Positions 16,306 through 25,710 of a stretch of 26,292 bases of DNA are shown in pieces (the stretch's first letter is position 1; every line of letters begins with the position of its first letter). The position numbers and the translations under genes were made by a program. Source of the DNA: Chthoniobacterales bacterium (GTDB taxonomy: Bacteria > Verrucomicrobiota > Verrucomicrobiia > Chthoniobacterales > UBA10450); assembly GCA_035459405.1 (NCBI GenBank), contig DATHXZ010000271.1, positions 1-26,292 of the forward strand, read 5' to 3'. A model generated the notes under the pieces. That model ran no database searches. It had not been told where the DNA came from and saw only the letters and a program-made list of their open reading frames with translations.

Positions 16306-17808
16306 ATGGTTTCGGCGTTTCTCAACACCGTCAAAATTCCGGAGCTGCGGCGCCGGATTCTTTTCACGCTGGCAGTCATCGTGATCGTGCGCCTAGGCGC
16401 GGCGATCACGACGCCTGGAGTCAACGCAGCGGTATTGCAGGAGTGGTTCCGCGACGCGATGAACAACGAGGCCGGCGGGGGAGTCGCGACCCTGTTCAAT
16501 CTGTTCAGCGGCGGCGCGCTCGAGAATTGCGCCATCTTCTCGCTTGGCATCATGCCGTACATCAGCGCGTCGATCATGCTGCAGCTGCTGACAGCGGTGA
16601 TCCCGAAGCTCGGACGTCTCGCGAAGGAAGATGGCGGCCGTCAGAAGATCATGCAGATCACGCGCTACGCGACGCTGGCTTTGTGCCTGGTGCAAGGTTG
16701 GCTGCTGGCGGTGTCACTGCAGAACCCGGCTTCGAACCCGATGCTCGGTGGCATTACCGATACGATCAACCGGCTCGGCATTCCACTCGTAGCAGATCAA
16801 GGCTGGACCTTCCGCTTTATCACCGTGATCTCACTCACGGCGGGCACGCTCTTCCTGATGTGGCTGGGCGATCAGATCACCGAGCGCGGCATAGGCAACG
16901 GCATCTCTGTCATCATTACGGTCGGCATCGTCGCGCAGCTGCCTGCGGCGTTGGCGCAAGCATGGAAGACGTTCGTTCCAACTGCTGCTGGTGGAAGCGG
17001 GCAGGTCAGTCCGGCAATCCTCGTATTGATGATCGGCTTCCTGTTCGTGGTAATCGCGGCGGTGATCGCCGTCACCCAGGGCGTACGAAAAATCACCGTG
17101 CAGTACGCGAAGCGTGTTGTCGGCCGCAAGATGTACGGCGGTCAGACGCAGTACATGCCGCTGAAAGTGAACTACGCGGGCGTCATGCCGATCATCTTCG
17201 CGTGGGCGCTGCTTCTTTTCCCGACAACAATCGTGTCGATGGCCTTTCAGAATAGCCGCACGGCGCGTGGCATCGCAGATGCGCTGTCGAATGGCTGGCC
17301 GCACTATCTCGTGCTGGCGCTGATGATTTTCTTCTTTAGCTACTTCTGGGTCGCGACGCAATTTCAGCCGGCGCAAATTGCGGACGATCTGAAAAAGCAC
17401 GGCGGCTACATCCCGGGCGTGCGACCTGGAAAGTCGACCTCTGACTTCCTCGATTACACAATGACGCGCCTGACGTTTGCCGGCGCGATCTTCCTCACAT
17501 TGATCGCCGTGCTACCCAGCTTGCTGAGCCAAGGCCTGAATGTGCCGACGATCACAGCGCAGTTCTTCGGCGGAACGAGCCTTCTGATCATTGTGGGCGT
17601 GATCCTCGACACGATGCGGCAGGTCGAAACGCACCTGATCCAGCGTCACTACGACGGATTCCTGCGCAAGGGCCGGATCCGCGGGCGGTTCGATCGCGCA
17701 TCGTACAACCGCGGCGAAGCTGCACCTCAGACGACGCTGATGTGGCTTTACGTCGGCATTGCGGTTCTGGTAATCGGCGGTGTGGCGATCTTCGTTTACC
17801 AACGCTAA
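16306..17808 (+). CDS. secY: Preprotein translocase subunit SecY with an extra C-terminal hydrophobic segment
   Basis: IFSLGIMPYISASI...MWLGDQITERGIGNGIS...PLKVNYAGVMPIIFA...GGYIPGVRPG...GGTSLLIIVGV. Confidence 0.99.
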   Translation: MVSAFLNTVKIPELRRRILFTLAVIVIVRLGAAITTPGVNAAVLQEWFRDAMNNEAGGGVATLFNLFSGGALENCAIFSLGIMPYISASIMLQLLTAVIPKLGRLAKEDGGRQKIMQITRYATLALCLVQGWLLAVSLQNPASNPMLGGITDTINRLGIPLVADQGWTFRFITVISLTAGTLFLMWLGDQITERGIGNGISVIITVGIVAQLPAALAQAWKTFVPTAAGGSGQVSPAILVLMIGFLFVVIAAVIAVTQGVRKITVQYAKRVVGRKMYGGQTQYMPLKVNYAGVMPIIFAWALLLFPTTIVSMAFQNSRTARGIADALSNGWPHYLVLALMIFFFSYFWVATQFQPAQIADDLKKHGGYIPGVRPGKSTSDFLDYTMTRLTFAGAIFLTLIAVLPSLLSQGLNVPTITAQFFGGTSLLIIVGVILDTMRQVETHLIQRHYDGFLRKGRIRGRFDRASYNRGEAAPQTTLMWLYVGIAVLVIGGVAIFVYQR

Positions 17809-18462
17809 GTGAAACGGCGGCTCGTTCTCCTCGGCGCACCGGGTTCCGGAAAAGGAACGCAGGCGGAGATGATCACCCGCCACTTCCACATCCCGGTCAC
17901 ATCGTCCGGCGCGATTCTGCGCCGAGAGATGGAGGTCGGAACGCTCCTCGGGCTCGAGGTCGCCGAGACCACAAAACATGGCGAGCTTGTTCCCGACAAG
18001 ATCATCATCGAGCTCATCGAGGATTATGTGCGCCTGCACGGCGCGCATGGCTTCGTTTTCGACGGGTTCCCGCGCACCATTCCGCAGGCCGAAGCGTTGC
18101 AAGGTGTGTTGCAGCGGCATCGCACGCCGCTTGATCTCGCGATCTGGCTCGACGTTTCCGCCGAGACGATCAGCGAGCGTATCTCGCACCGTCTCCAGTG
18201 TCAGTCCTGCGGGTTCACCACGGCAGAAAGCGCGGCGGGGTTCTCTGAGCGTGCGATTTGCCCATATTGCGACGGGCCGCTCGTCCGGCGAACGGACGAT
18301 GATGCTTCTGTCCTGCAAACGCGGCTTTCGGAGTTCAATCGAAAGACGCAGCCGCTGGCCGATTTCTACGATAAGGCCGGCACCTTGCGAAAGATCGACG
18401 GGAACCGCGATCGGGAAGCCGTATTCGCCGACATCTCACGTCTGATCGAGCAGGCGGCATGA
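17809..18462 (+). CDS. adk: Adenylate kinase with Zn-binding (4-Cys) LID
   Basis: P-loop GAPGSGKGTQA, DGFPRT, CQSC...CPYC, RRTDD. The GTG start directly follows the secY TAA. Confidence 0.97.
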   Translation: MKRRLVLLGAPGSGKGTQAEMITRHFHIPVTSSGAILRREMEVGTLLGLEVAETTKHGELVPDKIIIELIEDYVRLHGAHGFVFDGFPRTIPQAEALQGVLQRHRTPLDLAIWLDVSAETISERISHRLQCQSCGFTTAESAAGFSERAICPYCDGPLVRRTDDDASVLQTRLSEFNRKTQPLADFYDKAGTLRKIDGNRDREAVFADISRLIEQAA

Positions 18463-19235
18463 TTCCGATCAAGAGCGGGAAAGAAATCGACAAGATGCGG
18501 CTCGCGTGCCGCACGGCGAGCGAGATTCTCGAGCGCGTAAGCGATCTCGTGCGGCCGGGCATCACCACGAAGGAGGTCGACCAGGCCGCCGCGGACCTGA
18601 TGCAGGAAGCCGGCGTGAAGAGCGCGTTTCTTGGCTATCGCCTGGGCCATCGGGTGTTCCCGGGTAACATCTGCATCTCGCTGAATGACGAGATCGTTCA
18701 CGGCATCGGAAGTCAGCGGCGGATCCAATACGGCGACATCGTGAAGCTGGATATCGGCGTCATTCGTGACGGCTGGGTCGGGGATACTGCGTCGACTGTG
18801 CCAGTGGGAATGATCGACGACCGCACCGAGCAGTTGCTACGCACGACCGAAAATGCTCTGCGCGTGGCCATCGAGACAGCGTCCGAAGGGGTGCGACTCG
18901 GGGACGTTTGCGCAGCGATCGAGGCTGAAGCGGTTGCGAACCGTTTTGCCGTTGTCCGGGAGTTTGTTGGTCATGGCGTCGGACGCAAGCTGCACGAAGA
19001 ACCGCAGATCCCGAATTACGGGAAGCGTGGGAGCGGCCCGAAGTTGAAGGCCGGGATGACTCTCGCGATCGAGCCGATGATCAATGCCGGGACGGCGGCC
19101 GTCCGGCTGCTCGATGATGGCTGGACGGTTTGCACCGCCGACGGAATGCGTTCGGCACATTTTGAGCACACAGTCCTGATCACCAGGGATCAGCCGGAAA
19201 TCCTCACCGGTCGCGGCAAGCCGCAGCTGAAGTAG
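18459..19235 (+). CDS. map: Methionine aminopeptidase type I
   Basis: Metal-ligand motifs DIG...GDTA, GHGVG..LHEEP, EPM and FEHT. Confidence 0.98.
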   Translation: MIPIKSGKEIDKMRLACRTASEILERVSDLVRPGITTKEVDQAAADLMQEAGVKSAFLGYRLGHRVFPGNICISLNDEIVHGIGSQRRIQYGDIVKLDIGVIRDGWVGDTASTVPVGMIDDRTEQLLRTTENALRVAIETASEGVRLGDVCAAIEAEAVANRFAVVREFVGHGVGRKLHEEPQIPNYGKRGSGPKLKAGMTLAIEPMINAGTAAVRLLDDGWTVCTADGMRSAHFEHTVLITRDQPEILTGRGKPQLK

Positions 19236-19935: not shown

Positions 19936-20631
19936 ATGGCAGATTCAGAAGAGAACAAGCCGGCGAAGACCGGCGGTAAGAAGTCACCAGCTGCGAAGCC
20001 CGGTCAGCCGGAACAGTATCCGGCAGGGAGCTCTAAGGGCGACTCTGCTCCGCCGGCGCCAGTCGCAGCGCCGGCCGCACCGGAACAGACCGGGAATGCA
20101 GCCGCCTCCGCAACCGCAGCAGCTCCAGGCGGCACGGCGGAGCCCGGCACCAAGGCGCCAGCAAAGAAGGCCAAAGGCAAAAAGGACGAAGCTGCGGCCA
20201 CTGCCGAAGCACCGAAAGAGAATCTCTCGCTCGACCCGAACGCGGTCGAGCCAGTCAAAATCATCAAGGCAAAGGGGAGTAAGAACGTTCATTCTGGCGT
20301 CGCTCACATCCTTTCCACGTTCAACAACACGATCGTCACGATCACAGACCTGAACGGCAACGTGATCGGCTGGTCGAGCGCGGGTAAAGTCGGCTTCAAA
20401 GGCTCGCGCAAAAGCACGGCATACGCCGCGCAGATGGTCGCGCAGGACGCTTCTCGTCAGGCGATGGGACACGGCCTCAAGGAAGTCGAAGTGCTCGTGC
20501 GCGGACCAGGTGCCGGTCGCGAATCAGCAGTTCGCGCGTTGCAGGCAATCGGGCTCGATCTGACGGTCATCCGCGACGTCACGCCGGTTCCCCACAACGG
20601 CTGCCGGCCGCCAAAGCAGCGCCGCGTTTGA
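19936..20631 (+). CDS. rpsK: 30S ribosomal protein S11 with ~105-aa N-terminal low-complexity extension
   Basis: Core [12 protein letters not shown]...[14 protein letters not shown]...GPGAGRESA...[18 protein letters not shown]. Confidence 0.99.
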
Positions 20632-20680: not shown

Positions 20681-21292
20681 ATGGGCAGATACACCGGACC
20701 GAAAACCAAAGTCGCGCGTCGCTATGGCGTCCCGCTCTTTGGGCCATCGAAATCTCTCGAGCGCAAAAACTACCCGCCAGGCATGCACGGCCCGAAAGGC
20801 TCGCGTCGCAAGCAGTCGGACTATGCCGTCGCGCTCGGCGAGAAACAGAAATTGCGCTACCAGTACGGTCTGCTCGAGAAGCAGTTTCGCCGCATTTTCC
20901 AGACCGCTCTCCGTCGCCGCGGCGTCACGGGCGAAACGCTCCTGCAGCTGCTCGAGACACGCTTGGACAACGTGGTTTTCCGGCTCGGCCTAGCGAACAC
21001 GCGCAGTGCCGCTCGTCAGCTTGTTTCGCACGGCCATGTCGCCGTGAACGGCCGCGGCGTGAACATCGCCTCGTACAACGTGAAAGCAGGCGACACCGTT
21101 TCGATCAAGAACAAGCCGAAGTCACGTCAGCTTGCGGCGCGCAATCTCGAGCTCACGCAAATCGCTCCTGTTCCGGACTGGCTTATCGCCGACCGCGACG
21201 CGCTCAGCGGAAAGGTTACCCGCGTTCCTGTTCGCGACGAGATGCAGCCGATGGTCAACGAGCAGTTGATCGTCGAGCTCTACTCACGCTAG
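20681..21292 (+). CDS. rpsD: 30S ribosomal protein S4 (no Zn-binding Cys)
   Basis: MGRYTGPK...PPGMHG...EKQKLRYQYG...ETRLDNVVFRLG...ARQLVSHGH...QLIVELYSR. Confidence 0.99.
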   Translation: MGRYTGPKTKVARRYGVPLFGPSKSLERKNYPPGMHGPKGSRRKQSDYAVALGEKQKLRYQYGLLEKQFRRIFQTALRRRGVTGETLLQLLETRLDNVVFRLGLANTRSAARQLVSHGHVAVNGRGVNIASYNVKAGDTVSIKNKPKSRQLAARNLELTQIAPVPDWLIADRDALSGKVTRVPVRDEMQPMVNEQLIVELYSR

Positions 21293-21656: not shown

Positions 21657-22079
21657 GTGGCTGGCGCAGACGCACTTAAACGAATCCTCGTCGTCGATGA
21701 CGATGTAACGCTGATGCGCGTCACGCGCGAGGCGCTTACGTCGCTCCTGCGGTGCGAAGTCGACACGTCACCGAAGCCCGAATACGGATTCGAGCTGATG
21801 CTGAAACGCAGCTACGACCTGCTGATCTTCGACTTCTCGATGCCGATGATCGACGGTGCGATGCTGTTCCTGCTGATCGGCAAAGTTTACACTAATGCGC
21901 AACCGCCGCGGGCGGTCCCGCCGTTGTTGTTGATCTCCGGCAGAGGAGATGAAGAACGCGCGCAGGAACTCCTGCGCGAGCCGGGAGTGAGTGGGTTGAT
22001 CCCGAAGCCATTCACGATCAACCGCCTTATCGAGCGGGTGAAGGAATGCGTGCCTGGGATTGAGAGTGTCGGCGCGTAG
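21657..22079 (+). CDS. Single-domain response regulator (CheY-like receiver)
   Basis: RILVVDDD, phosphoacceptor LLIFD-FSMP, ISG and the PKPF lysine motif; no output domain. Confidence 0.9.
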   Translation: MAGADALKRILVVDDDVTLMRVTREALTSLLRCEVDTSPKPEYGFELMLKRSYDLLIFDFSMPMIDGAMLFLLIGKVYTNAQPPRAVPPLLLISGRGDEERAQELLREPGVSGLIPKPFTINRLIERVKECVPGIESVGA

Positions 22080-22085
22080 GCGGCT

Positions 22086-22448
22086 CTACGAACGTCCCTG
22101 CCGAGCCTCGTCCAGCAGTTGCTGGCGAGCGTCGAGCCAGTCTTTCGCGGGATCGCCTTGCAACGCAAGCTGCACCCGCCGCTCCGCGATGAAGTAAGCG
22201 CGCAGACGGATATCTGCGTCTGAAGGTTCGGCCGGTTCGCTCACCTGAGTGCGCCGCTTGCCAGCGCTCTTTTTCGAAGCCGCAGTGGCTGATCTCTTTT
22301 TAGCAGCAGGCTTCTTTGCTGCTGGCGCTTTCGCCGAACGTGTCCGCTTTTTCGCCGGGGCAGCGGTGTTCTCGGTCGGTTCCGTAGTGCCATTGGTGGT
22401 CACAGGAGCGTCGTCGTTCGCTGGTTGTTTCTTCGAAGTCTTAGGCAC
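22086..22448 (-). CDS. DUF2934-like domain protein with a basic histone-H1-like N-terminal region
   Basis: C-terminal IRLRAYFIAERR...DPAKDWLDARQQL pattern; N-terminal AKKPAAKK-type repeats. Confidence 0.75.
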   Translation of the reverse strand: MPKTSKKQPANDDAPVTTNGTTEPTENTAAPAKKRTRSAKAPAAKKPAAKKRSATAASKKSAGKRRTQVSEPAEPSDADIRLRAYFIAERRVQLALQGDPAKDWLDARQQLLDEARQGRS

Positions 22449-22451
22449 AGG

Positions 22452-22460
22452 TGGTATGAT
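22452..22460 (+). promoter_or_regulatory. Extended -10 element, probably for the downstream membrane-protein gene
   Basis: TG-G-TATGAT about 100 nt upstream of ATG 22562. Confidence 0.4.
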
Positions 22461-22561
22461 GATGGGTTCGAGAACACAATTACTAGTGGCGCGAAGGTTT
22501 GCAAGCGGATTTTCCCAAACCAGTTGCCTGTGCTGTGCCGCGTCGGATACCGTTGCTGCGC

Positions 22562-22984
22562 ATGCGGCACTTCGTCTTCCGCTGGGTGGTCACCACGATC
22601 GCAGTCATGGTTGCCTCGGCGTTCCTGCCGGGCATGCGCTACGACAGCATAGGTTCGCTCGTTGCGGCGGCGCTGCTTCTCGGAATCCTCAATGCCTTCG
22701 TGCGCCCGCTGCTGCTCATCCTGAGTGCGCCGCTCATCCTCCTGACACTTGGCTTCTTCATTCTGATCGTGAATGGCTTCATGTTGCTCGTGGTGCCGAA
22801 CTTCGTTCCTGGCTTTCATGTCGACGGCTTCTGGAGCGCATTTTGGGGCGCGATTGTGATCGGCATTATCAGCTGGATGCTCAGCGCGTTCTTCCGCGGC
22901 AGCGATGGCCGCGTGCATGTGCTGACGCATCACACAGACATCAAGCAAGTGCAGGGTCGGGTGATCGATCCCGGCTCGCGGTAG
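22562..22984 (+). CDS. Phage_holin_4_2 / YvlD-family membrane protein
   Basis: AALLLGILNAFVRPLLLILSAPLILLTLGFFILIVNG...GFHVDGFWSAFWGAIVI signature. Start at ATG 22562. Confidence 0.9.
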   Translation: MRHFVFRWVVTTIAVMVASAFLPGMRYDSIGSLVAAALLLGILNAFVRPLLLILSAPLILLTLGFFILIVNGFMLLVVPNFVPGFHVDGFWSAFWGAIVIGIISWMLSAFFRGSDGRVHVLTHHTDIKQVQGRVIDPGSR

Positions 22985-23118
22985 CTCTCACGTTTCGCTT
23001 TCGCGCGCAGCGGGGAATTCGCGATCGCACCGCTGCTGCGGCAGGTGGCGACGTGTGGAAGCGGCGCGGTCGCAACTCATCGGCTACCTGTGCCGCGGGT
23101 CTGTGAATTTCACACTGT

Positions 23119-23201: not shown

Positions 23202-24983
23202 ATGTCTACTCGCCTTAACCAATTCCTCTGCGGAGCGGCGGCGTTGCTCTTCGCGACGTCAGTCTCTCACGCGCAGCTCAGTTCCCCTGCGCCTGCGCCG
23301 CTCTCCAGTCCGTCGACCTTGCTGCAACCAGCAACTGCTTCGACCACGACTGCAACCACGACGCTTCCAGCAACCGCTCCGAGCAGCAAACCCGCCAGCA
23401 GCTCTTCGATGATGCTGGTCCAGGCTGCGACGGTGCCGGCAGCATCGCCTGCTCCTGGTGCCACTGGGACCACGACCACGACAGCGACGACCACCACTCC
23501 CGGCGGTGAACTCGATCCGGTGGCGGAAAGCGGCGGTGTGGGCGTGCGCGAGTTTCAAGGCGACGACGTGGGCCAGGTGCTGCGCCTCCTCGCGCGCCAA
23601 GCGAAGATCAACATGGTGGTGAGCGACCAGATTCCGCCAGCCACGACCGTCACGATGCGCCTCGAAGATGTCACTGCACTGCAGGCGATCGCGATCATCG
23701 TGAAAGCCAAAGGGCTCTTCATGGATCAGATCGACAACGTCTACTACATCAAGACCGCAGCCGAGCGCACCGCTGAGCCGACGGAAAGCGATAGCTATCA
23801 ATTCAGCTACAGCCGCGCGAAAGACATCGCTCCGCTGATCGCCTCGCAGCTCGCGAGCAAGGACGCGCCGCAGGTCGATGACCGCACGAACACGATGTTC
23901 TACCGTGAGACCCGCAGTAACATCGACGCGATTCGCAAGATGCTCGTGCAGATCGACAAGCCCACCAAGCAGGTCATGATCGAGGCGCGCCTGGTTGAGG
24001 TGAACGCAAATCCGAAACAGACCTACGGCATCAACTGGGCGGGTGTGACTGGCGGCAAGTCGGTCGGATATTCCGGCACCAACAGCCTGCGCGACCCTGC
24101 CGGCCAGCTGATCCCGAATGACTTCACCGCCGGTAATGCAGCCAATCCGAACCTGCTCGGTAACTTCGCAAAGCTCGCGGCCGGCCAGTTTGCGATCCTA
24201 ACCGTGCCGCAGATGAACATCACGCTCGACGCGCTGAATCAGGACACCGACGCCGAGTTCCTCGCGAACCCGCGCATCGTCACGGCCGACAACCAGCAGG
24301 CGAAGATCGAGATCATCCGCAACCAGCCGGTCCCGCAGCTCAATTTCAACGAGCAAACCGCCACCGCAGTGTTCGGCGGATTCGAGGACAAAAAGTTCGG
24401 CAACACGCTCGTGGTTAAGCCGCTCGTGAACAAAGACAACTTCATCACGCTGGCGGTGAAGCCGGAGATCAGCAACAAGGTTGGCGACCAGGATTTCTTC
24501 CCGCCGAACTCCGACCAGCCGGTGAAGAGCCCGATCATCGATACCCGCACGCTCGAGTCGACCGTGCTGATCAGGAGCGGTGACACGCTCGCGATCGGTG
24601 GTTTGCTCCAGGATGAAATCACGAAGACGCGCACCAAGGTGCCGATTGTGGGCGACGTTCCTGTGCTTGGCTACCTCTTCCAACACCGCAGCAATGCCCG
24701 CGTGAAGCGCAATCTCCTCGTGTTTGTGACGCCTTCGATCATCGATCAGAGCTACGGCACCGGCCTCGAAGATCAGGTCAGCGGATTGCACCATAGCGGT
24801 GAAGAATATGCCGACCCGAACGGCTGGCGGAATAATGCGAAGGGCGCTGTTCGCGTCGTGCCTACTTCAAACCGTCAGCGCGCAGCCGATTATCCGAAGC
24901 CGGGAACGCCGCCGGCGCCTGCGAAGACAGCGTCCTCCAGGCGTATGCGCTTCATGAGCGACGCGAAGGATCGCGACTTCTAG
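23202..24983 (+). CDS. Outer-membrane secretin (PilQ/GspD family)
   Basis: Signal peptide (VSHA-Q), Pro/Thr/Ala linker and N0/STN-like segment. QVDDRTNT...IDKPTKQVMIEARLVEV, LANPRIVTADNQQAKI, VLIRSGDTLAIGGLL, KVPIVGDVPVLGYLF and LLVFVTPSII follow. Confidence 0.95.
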   Translation: MSTRLNQFLCGAAALLFATSVSHAQLSSPAPAPLSSPSTLLQPATASTTTATTTLPATAPSSKPASSSSMMLVQAATVPAASPAPGATGTTTTTATTTTPGGELDPVAESGGVGVREFQGDDVGQVLRLLARQAKINMVVSDQIPPATTVTMRLEDVTALQAIAIIVKAKGLFMDQIDNVYYIKTAAERTAEPTESDSYQFSYSRAKDIAPLIASQLASKDAPQVDDRTNTMFYRETRSNIDAIRKMLVQIDKPTKQVMIEARLVEVNANPKQTYGINWAGVTGGKSVGYSGTNSLRDPAGQLIPNDFTAGNAANPNLLGNFAKLAAGQFAILTVPQMNITLDALNQDTDAEFLANPRIVTADNQQAKIEIIRNQPVPQLNFNEQTATAVFGGFEDKKFGNTLVVKPLVNKDNFITLAVKPEISNKVGDQDFFPPNSDQPVKSPIIDTRTLESTVLIRSGDTLAIGGLLQDEITKTRTKVPIVGDVPVLGYLFQHRSNARVKRNLLVFVTPSIIDQSYGTGLEDQVSGLHHSGEEYADPNGWRNNAKGAVRVVPTSNRQRAADYPKPGTPPAPAKTASSRRMRFMSDAKDRDF

Positions 24984-25104: not shown

Positions 25105-25710
25105 TCAGCTGGCAAGATATGCCTTCAATCGCTCGCGAAGCTCAGTGCGGGCGCGGAACAACAGGCTCTTCACAGCCGGGACCGATTGATCCAGCACGTC
25201 GGCGATCTCTTCGTAACTGAGTTCCTCGTAACGACGCAGCACCACAGCCATCCTTTGGCTTTCCGGTAGCTCGCCGATCGCCGCCTCGATCGCGCTTTGA
25301 AGCTCACCTTCGAGGAGCGACGCGTCGGGGGTCTGGCCACGTTCGTCCTTCAGCTGCATCTCCTCTCCCTCGGGTTCCGTCTGAAGCGGCGTGAGCGCGT
25401 GACGTTTTCGGCGGCGCATTTCGTTGAACACCAGATTGCGGGTGATCTTGAGGAGCCACGTCGTGAACTTCGCGCGGGGCTCGTATCGCTTGGCGCTTTT
25501 CCAAACTCTCACGAACACCTGCTGCGCCACGTCCTCAACGTCCGCGTTGCTGCCAAGCATCCGTCCGACAGTTCCGGCGACAAGCGTTTGGTGGCGCCCG
25601 ACCAGCTGCTCGAATGCCGCCATGTCGCCCCCGCTCACCAAGTGCATCAACCGCACGTCCTCAGCGTCGCCTTCGGCAACTCCCGCTGAAGGTGGATCTT
25701 GGCGGGACAT
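25105..25710 (-). CDS. ECF-family RNA polymerase sigma-70 factor
   Basis: AFEQLV.RHQ, ADVEDVAQQVFVRVW, KFTTWLLKITRN, LPESQRMAVVLRRYEELSYEEIADVL...VKSLLFRARTELR. Confidence 0.95.
   Translation of the reverse strand: MSRQDPPSAGVAEGDAEDVRLMHLVSGGDMAAFEQLVGRHQTLVAGTVGRMLGSNADVEDVAQQVFVRVWKSAKRYEPRAKFTTWLLKITRNLVFNEMRRRKRHALTPLQTEPEGEEMQLKDERGQTPDASLLEGELQSAIEAAIGELPESQRMAVVLRRYEELSYEEIADVLDQSVPAVKSLLFRARTELRERLKAYLAS

Follow-up and report, generated by a model that had tools for sequence, protein, structure and literature searches.

A conserved, predicted eleventh transmembrane helix at the C terminus of SecY in a class of the Verrucomicrobiota

The secY gene and its C-terminal extension

The window, that is, the whole 26,292-nucleotide stretch of DNA analysed here, comes from a metagenome-assembled genome (MAG) of a Chthoniobacterales bacterium that is 82% complete and spread over 699 contigs. 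Its secY gene has the placement expected in the spc operon, between rplO (encoding ribosomal protein L15, 15689-16279) and adk, with the GTG start codon of adk at 17809 abutting the TAA stop codon of secY (Table 1). The gene order 3' of secY is adk, map (18459-19235), rpsM, rpsK, rpsD, a response regulator, an ORF of unknown identity and a secretin, and the secY-adk order is the same in lineages with and without the C-terminal helix described below. A single SecY match was found in the genome of the window and in nearly all of the 200 phylum genomes searched, identifying this gene as the housekeeping copy and not a SecY2-type paralogue.

Ribosomal protein S11 (19936-20631, + strand; 231 aa) matches the Pfam S11 domain only in residues 121-230, which are preceded by an N-terminal extension of ~120 aa rich in P, A, E, and K, and L15 (+ strand; 196 aa) has a Lys/Ala/Ser-rich C-terminal tail beyond its Pfam domain (residues 78-146). 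There is no rpoA-rplQ after rpsD (20681-21292), which is followed instead by the response regulator, a stand-alone receiver protein (21657-22079), the 285-aa ORF without a Pfam match (22249-23106), the secretin (23202-24983), an ECF sigma factor (25105-25710, - strand), and the start of a radical-SAM gene.

Canonical SecY has 10 transmembrane (TM) helices and a cytoplasmic C terminus, an architecture that, to our knowledge, is treated as universal for SecY/Sec61alpha, which is among the most conserved of membrane proteins. The secY product in the window is clearly a member of this family, with a match to PF00344 over residues 77-437 only (E-value, 6.7e-107; 357.8 bits against a cut-off of 32.2); a scan of the whole protein against Pfam at E ≤ 0.1 returned only SecY and a sub-threshold MSP1a match in the core, with no family matched by the C-terminal extension. 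A single-chain AlphaFold2 (AF2) model built from an alignment of 123 sequences (mean pLDDT, 86; pTM, 0.81) has the SecY fold, including the two five-helix halves, the plug, and the C4/C5 loops, and its best Foldseek match in the PDB is Thermus thermophilus 5AWW_Y (E-value, 8.5e-28; TM-score by target, 0.88; ~40% identity), a resting-state SecY. All of the matches in the PDB are SecY/Sec61alpha chains with 10 TM helices, aligned over ~440-520 columns, and none of them covers the additional helix; among the solved SecY sequences matched at E ≤ 1e-20, the alignment stops at query residue 462 or earlier in 16 of 16.

Compared to canonical SecY (T. thermophilus 5AWW/2ZJS, E. coli 5GAE/6R7L, and T. 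maritima 3DIN), residues 1-461 of this protein are those of an ordinary SecY, with the same basic HYDGFLRKGRIRGR end and the same rplO-adk position, to which are added a 16-residue linker, an eleventh helix (TM11) predicted to place the C terminus in the periplasm, and ~10 residues in the loop between TM3 and TM4. SecYs from other classes and phyla stop 6-22 residues past the HYDGF motif. The original prediction, made from the DNA alone, had placed a 39-residue extension past the usual basic end (17689-17808) and a hydrophobic helix within it (17737-17799), and both sets of coordinates proved exact when the frame and translation were checked. The hydrophobic 21-mer has a best 19-residue Kyte-Doolittle mean of 2.47, is modelled by AF2 as a helix over residues 475-499 (pLDDT in 10-residue blocks of 73/88/79), and is conserved in 57 of 57 SecYs from the class. 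In the same model, the TM10 helix is long, reaching residue 455, and residues 457-470 are disordered (pLDDT <50). The protein consequently departs from the pattern of 10 TM helices with a cytoplasmic C terminus through an eleventh helix that follows the cytoplasmic tail, which is a variation within the SecY family and no ground for exclusion from it. With high confidence, the 39-residue extension provides SecY with an eleventh TM helix, the conservation of which sets the whole class apart.

Table 1. Positions of secY, its parts, and the adjoining adk gene in the window
Feature	Positions	Strand	Residues	Remarks
secY coding sequence	16306..17808	+	500 aa	Stop codon TAA included; from the ORF list and translation
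Enlarged periplasmic TM3-TM4 loop	16723..16803	+	140-166	Short AF2 helix at 150-157; from length comparison and alignment
Basic C-terminal (C6) motif HYDGFLRKGRIRGR	17647..17688	+	448-461	Usual SecY end
Extension FDRASYNRGEAAPQTT-LMWLYVGIAVLVIGGVAIFVY-QR	17689-17805	+	462-500	Stop codon TAA at 17806-17808
Linker	17689..17736	+	462-477	16 residues; semi-conserved G-D/E-A-A motif at 470-473
Predicted TM11 LMWLYVGIAVLVIGGVAIFVY	17737..17799	+	478-498	Hydrophobic 21-mer; AF2 helix at 475-499
G492 codon	17779..17781	+	492	Nearly invariant TM11 glycine; L488 one turn before, W/F496 one turn after
Predicted periplasmic end QR and stop codon TAA	17800..17808	+		Two residues; adjoins adk GTG at 17809
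adk (adenylate kinase)	17809..18462	+		PF00406, E-value 3e-42; conserved downstream neighbour of secY

The enlarged loop had also been noticed in the original prediction, and a comparison of loop lengths bears this out, with a median of 49 residues between Q130 and G180 in the SecYs that have TM11 (51-52 in the group to which the window belongs) compared to 39 in those that do not. Conserved core positions specific to the TM11-bearing clade are limited to five, L147, Y290, Y334, T442, and Q446, which do not cluster or mark out a surface. L147 is part of the enlarged TM3-TM4 loop; TM7, a lateral-gate helix, has Y290 at its cytoplasmic start; TM8 has Y334 at its periplasmic start; and the cytoplasmic helix that follows TM10 carries T442 and Q446. 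It is speculation that the enlarged loop might contact the periplasmic end of TM11.

Distribution and origin of the eleventh helix

All 57 distinct SecYs inspected from the class of the window end in a tail of 45-60 aa that contains a single hydrophobic 19-mer (Kyte-Doolittle mean, 1.56-3.2); the set is made up of 34 sequences read from genomes of the class (tail in 34/34), including two single-contig reduced genomes of 0.9 Mb from the same order, and 23 tail-bearing loci taken from named MAGs. The named MAGs with the tail belong to the Chthoniobacterales, the Verrucomicrobiales (Prosthecobacter, Akkermansiaceae, and Akkermansia), the Opitutales (Lacunisphaera and Opitutaceae), and the Puniceicoccales, and Methylacidiphilum-like lineages are also among the carriers. 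The closest database proteins share 84-98% identity with the query, are 499-504 aa long, and cover it completely; they derive from many independent metagenome contigs, several of them named Chthoniobacterales, and at this level of identity the same tail recurs in hundreds of independent assemblies. In a search of 200 genomes from the phylum, the SecY open frames from the class of the window were ~493-660 aa long and most aligned to query residue ~489-500, while those from other classes aligned to ~460-466, with most frames ~450-480 aa long.

Outside of the class, the tail was not found in any of the 16 SecYs read from other classes, which end ~10 residues past HYDGF, nor in the SecY loci read from the Kiritimatiellia, Victivallales, Lentisphaeria, Tichowtungia, Omnitrophota, Planctomycetia, and many other phyla; it was also absent from four MAGs loosely labelled Verrucomicrobia/Verrucomicrobiia. 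Within the PVC group, for which the original prediction had proposed a survey, TM11 is thus a feature of the class of the window, with none in the sister classes inspected or in the Planctomycetia. Of the representatives of SecY clusters at 50% identity, 127 could be anchored, and 120 of these had tails of <25 residues; a TM tail occurred in only four clusters; this survey covered the nearest 150 of 17,092 SecY clusters (E ≤ 0.001), such that independent gains elsewhere in the family are possible. A full-text literature search gave no description of a SecY with 11 TM helices, so that the helix does not appear to have been characterised already. One locus of a Puniceicoccales MAG (JAISSQ010000011.1) has a putative SecY frame of ~710 aa in which the match to SecY extends to query residue 499; the frame ends in a long K/P/A/E-rich low-complexity region and a His-rich terminus (...HAGHDHSAHDHANHAH).

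A phylogenetic tree was built on the SecY core, with the columns of the tail left out. The sequences with TM11 fall into two clades, both strongly supported, one composed of the Chthoniobacterales and four further families (f8, f10, f12, and f13) and the other of seven families (f5-f7, f9, f11, f14, and f15). A group of tail-less sequences joins the first of these with weak support (SH-aLRT, 82), so that two changes are required on the free tree. When all 48 TM11 rows were constrained to a single clade, the likelihood was above that of the free search (+22 lnL; p-AU = 0.68) and, because the constrained tree has the higher likelihood, a single origin is not rejected by the core phylogeny. A single origin also agrees with the class assignment. 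In the simplest reading of these sequence data, TM11 would have arisen once, at the base of the clade that corresponds to the class Verrucomicrobiae, and would have been kept since.

The tails of the two clades have distinct motifs, LVWLY..I..LVIAG and FWTAWRPLL....LF.LG..SWF, the latter being four residues longer. They are taken as homologous because they share the G-D/E-A-A linker motif, L488, G492, and an aromatic residue at position 496. G492 is a glycine in 55 of the 57 distinct tails and an alanine in two, and the next best conserved positions of TM11 (L481, W/Y482, L/I485, L488, and W/F496) lie with it on one face of the helix; the 100-degree periodicity of conservation along TM11 exceeds that of 99% of permutations (p ~0.01). 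Against close relatives, dN for TM11 is 0.15-0.27, compared to 0.11 for the core, with synonymous sites saturated. Where dN/dS could be computed for the tail it is ~0.17-0.20, a rough value given that dS is saturated in most comparisons. These counts suggest that the tail is under purifying selection, and its retention in the 0.9-Mb reduced genomes points the same way. The extension is a real part of SecY and has probably been kept by selection, and TM11 provides a clean molecular marker for the clade.

Topology and possible roles of the eleventh helix

In SecY, TM10 ends in the cytoplasm. Among the 57 tails, the stretch between HYDGF and TM11 contains a mean of 6.4 K/R residues and TM11 is followed by only 0-11 residues (mean, 4.2). 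Due to the cytoplasmic end of TM10, the basic stretch before TM11, and the few residues after it, TM11, if it spans the membrane, must do so in the N-in/C-out orientation. This orientation, as the original prediction had it, is well grounded and would leave two residues of the protein from the window in the periplasm. Only two codons separate the hydrophobic segment from the stop codon, and the segment is therefore still inside the ribosome at termination, leaving it only afterwards. The closeness of TM11 to the stop codon suggests that the last helix of SecY would be inserted post-translationally, in the manner of a tail anchor, and raises the question of how a helix that emerges only after termination is inserted.

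The best explanation of the extension, to which we assign a probability of roughly 60%, is that it constitutes a selected flexible linker and an N-in/C-out TM helix of single origin that acts as a built-in accessory helix of the translocon; that TM11 works in this capacity is held with moderate confidence. The conserved face (L481/W482, L485, L488, G492, and W/F496) would pack on another translocon helix, belonging to SecY, SecE, or SecG, and this packing would close the otherwise free C6 tail, where SecA and the ribosome make contact in E. coli, into a membrane-tethered loop. The site at which TM11 might pack was also sought with a second structural model and by covariation. The ESM Atlas model of a related verrucomicrobial SecY of 502 aa superposes on the AF2 model over residues 1-460 only, due to which the two predictors have no visible agreement on the position of TM11. 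APC-corrected mutual information, computed for TM11 against the core on 173 sequences (Neff ~38), returned scattered top pairs that are topologically inconsistent and, because the cytoplasmic end of TM11 was paired with periplasmic loops, these are treated as phylogenetic noise.

The most serious alternative, though a good deal less probable than a built-in helix, is that the conserved face is an intermolecular interface and TM11 serves to dock or recruit another membrane protein, which could be YidC, SecDF, a lineage-specific factor, or, through dimerisation, a second SecYEG. A single conserved face with a nearly invariant glycine suits contacts between proteins no less than contacts within one, the linker, which is long and disordered, would allow the helix to reach outward, and the small number of clade-specific core positions and the limit of the AF2/ESM superposition at residue 460 are both in keeping with this reading. 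Against it, no candidate partner was found, the presence of SecG, SecE, and YajC not following that of TM11, and pLDDT values of up to 88 for a block of the helix in a single-chain AF2 model give a weak hint of packing in cis.

It is improbable that TM11 is instead a regulatory pseudo-substrate, which would sit, while tethered to the idle channel, in its lateral gate or signal-sequence site and be displaced by substrates, in a manner comparable to RAMP4 at the Sec61 gate. A helix resembling a tail anchor, in the orientation of a signal anchor and on a flexible linker of 16-19 residues, would be suited to such a role, and the clade-specific Y290 is at the start of a lateral-gate helix, but the strict conservation of one glycine and one face suggests that the packing partner is fixed, not transient. 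Among solved structures the model matched the resting-state 5AWW best, a comparison that is silent on TM11.

It is tentatively proposed that TM11 could be a functionally required and clade-defining element of the translocon, either as a regulator of the gate or tail in cis or as an anchor for an undescribed partner. The SecY of a soil verrucomicrobium has 11 helices in place of 10, and the class of Akkermansia shares the additional one, which, in the predicted topology, puts the C terminus of SecY on the periplasmic side and leaves the C6 tail tethered. If TM11 were required, the cytoplasmic docking face would be built differently in members of the class, the SecYEG of the whole class, including that of gut Akkermansia, would be unlike every solved translocon, and SecY would need tail-anchor-type post-translational insertion of its own last helix.

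Translocon subunits in the phylum

Small peripheral subunits of the translocon offer the nearest parallels to TM11. Sec61beta and its archaeal counterpart Sec-beta, which bind to the N-terminal half of the channel (TM1/TM4), and TM2 of SecG are N-in/C-out helices. TM11 is likewise a single helix predicted to be N-in/C-out with almost no external tail and may plausibly lie at the periphery of the channel too, but it is covalently part of SecY, has no sequence match to these proteins, and occurs alongside a separately encoded SecG. A second parallel is provided by TM1-2 of E. coli SecE, which are non-essential extra helices; these and TM11 are both lineage-specific TM additions to a universal core, while TM11 is on the C terminus of SecY, is class-wide, and is kept in reduced genomes of 0.9 Mb.

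The original prediction read TM11 as a possibly fused accessory subunit and had raised the presence or absence of secG as a check. The genome of the window does encode SecG, as a 176-aa ORF with both TM helices (68.6 bits; contig C84 of the genome, G000:C84), and SecG was found in 198 of 201 phylum genomes (63/65 from the class), SecE (PF00584) in 195 of 201 (64/65 from the class, with members of the same family and order as the window included), and YajC in all 201. The pattern of presence of the three subunits does not track TM11, and the free-standing secG and secE genes are not what fusion or replacement of either subunit would leave behind. In the Pfam scan (E ≤ 0.1), the extension matched neither the SecG profile (PF03840) nor the Sec-beta profile. 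Further, no small TM ORF was found between secY and adk at 14 loci from sister classes, at most of which the start of adk is within ~26 nt of the secY stop codon or overlaps the end of secY; an origin of TM11 through gene fusion was rejected on this basis.

It is therefore very unlikely that TM11 is the former TM2 of SecG, Sec-beta, or a helix of SecE, joined to SecY in replacement of a lost gene. The predicted N-in/C-out orientation and minimal external tail, which TM11 has in common with Sec61beta and TM2 of SecG, would fit such a history, but the subunits are retained, the extension matches no family, and there is no intervening small ORF from which it could have been drawn. The topology put forward in the original prediction thus stands while the fused subunit does not, and TM11 has been added to a SecYEG-YajC set that is complete and in which no subunit has been replaced. 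No link was seen between TM11 and an exported protein of the same operon, which the original prediction had suggested as a partner that might dock there. The remaining explanation, that the extension is a read-through product of a sequencing error or stop-codon loss in a MAG, or else a neutral tail without function, draws on the incompleteness and fragmentation of the MAG that contains the window and has a negligible probability, as it is refuted by the class-wide distribution of the tail, which is present in all class SecYs inspected, close relatives included, in hundreds of independent assemblies, and in complete single-contig genomes, and the neutral form of it is countered by the conservation of G492 and its helical face and by the retention of the tail in the 0.9-Mb reduced genomes.

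In the MAG of the window itself (82% complete, 699 contigs), secE was not found and neither was the essential gene nusG adjacent to it. Because the neighbouring nusG is also missing, the gap is ascribed to the assembly; the secE-nusG locus appears to be unassembled, and a loss of secE from this genome was rejected.

The SecG of this genome (L001, 1483-2013) consists of the two-TM core followed by a Pro/Ala-rich tail of ~100 aa, and genomes of the phylum commonly have open frames of 150-200 aa around SecG. SecE differs between the two TM11 clades, with a weak Pfam match in the Chthoniobacterales and the families grouped with them (f8, f10, f12, and f13; E-values, 1e-4 to 1e-6) and a stronger one in the other clade (1e-13 to 1e-16). 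In some of the genomes with weak matches, the SecE match is split in two by what looks like a short insert near WPWESKEKGIRRYKEL (L145, 1486-1704, - strand; L146, 1483-1791, - strand), and the SecE of the Methylacidiphilum-like family f10 has an extra N-terminal TM helix.
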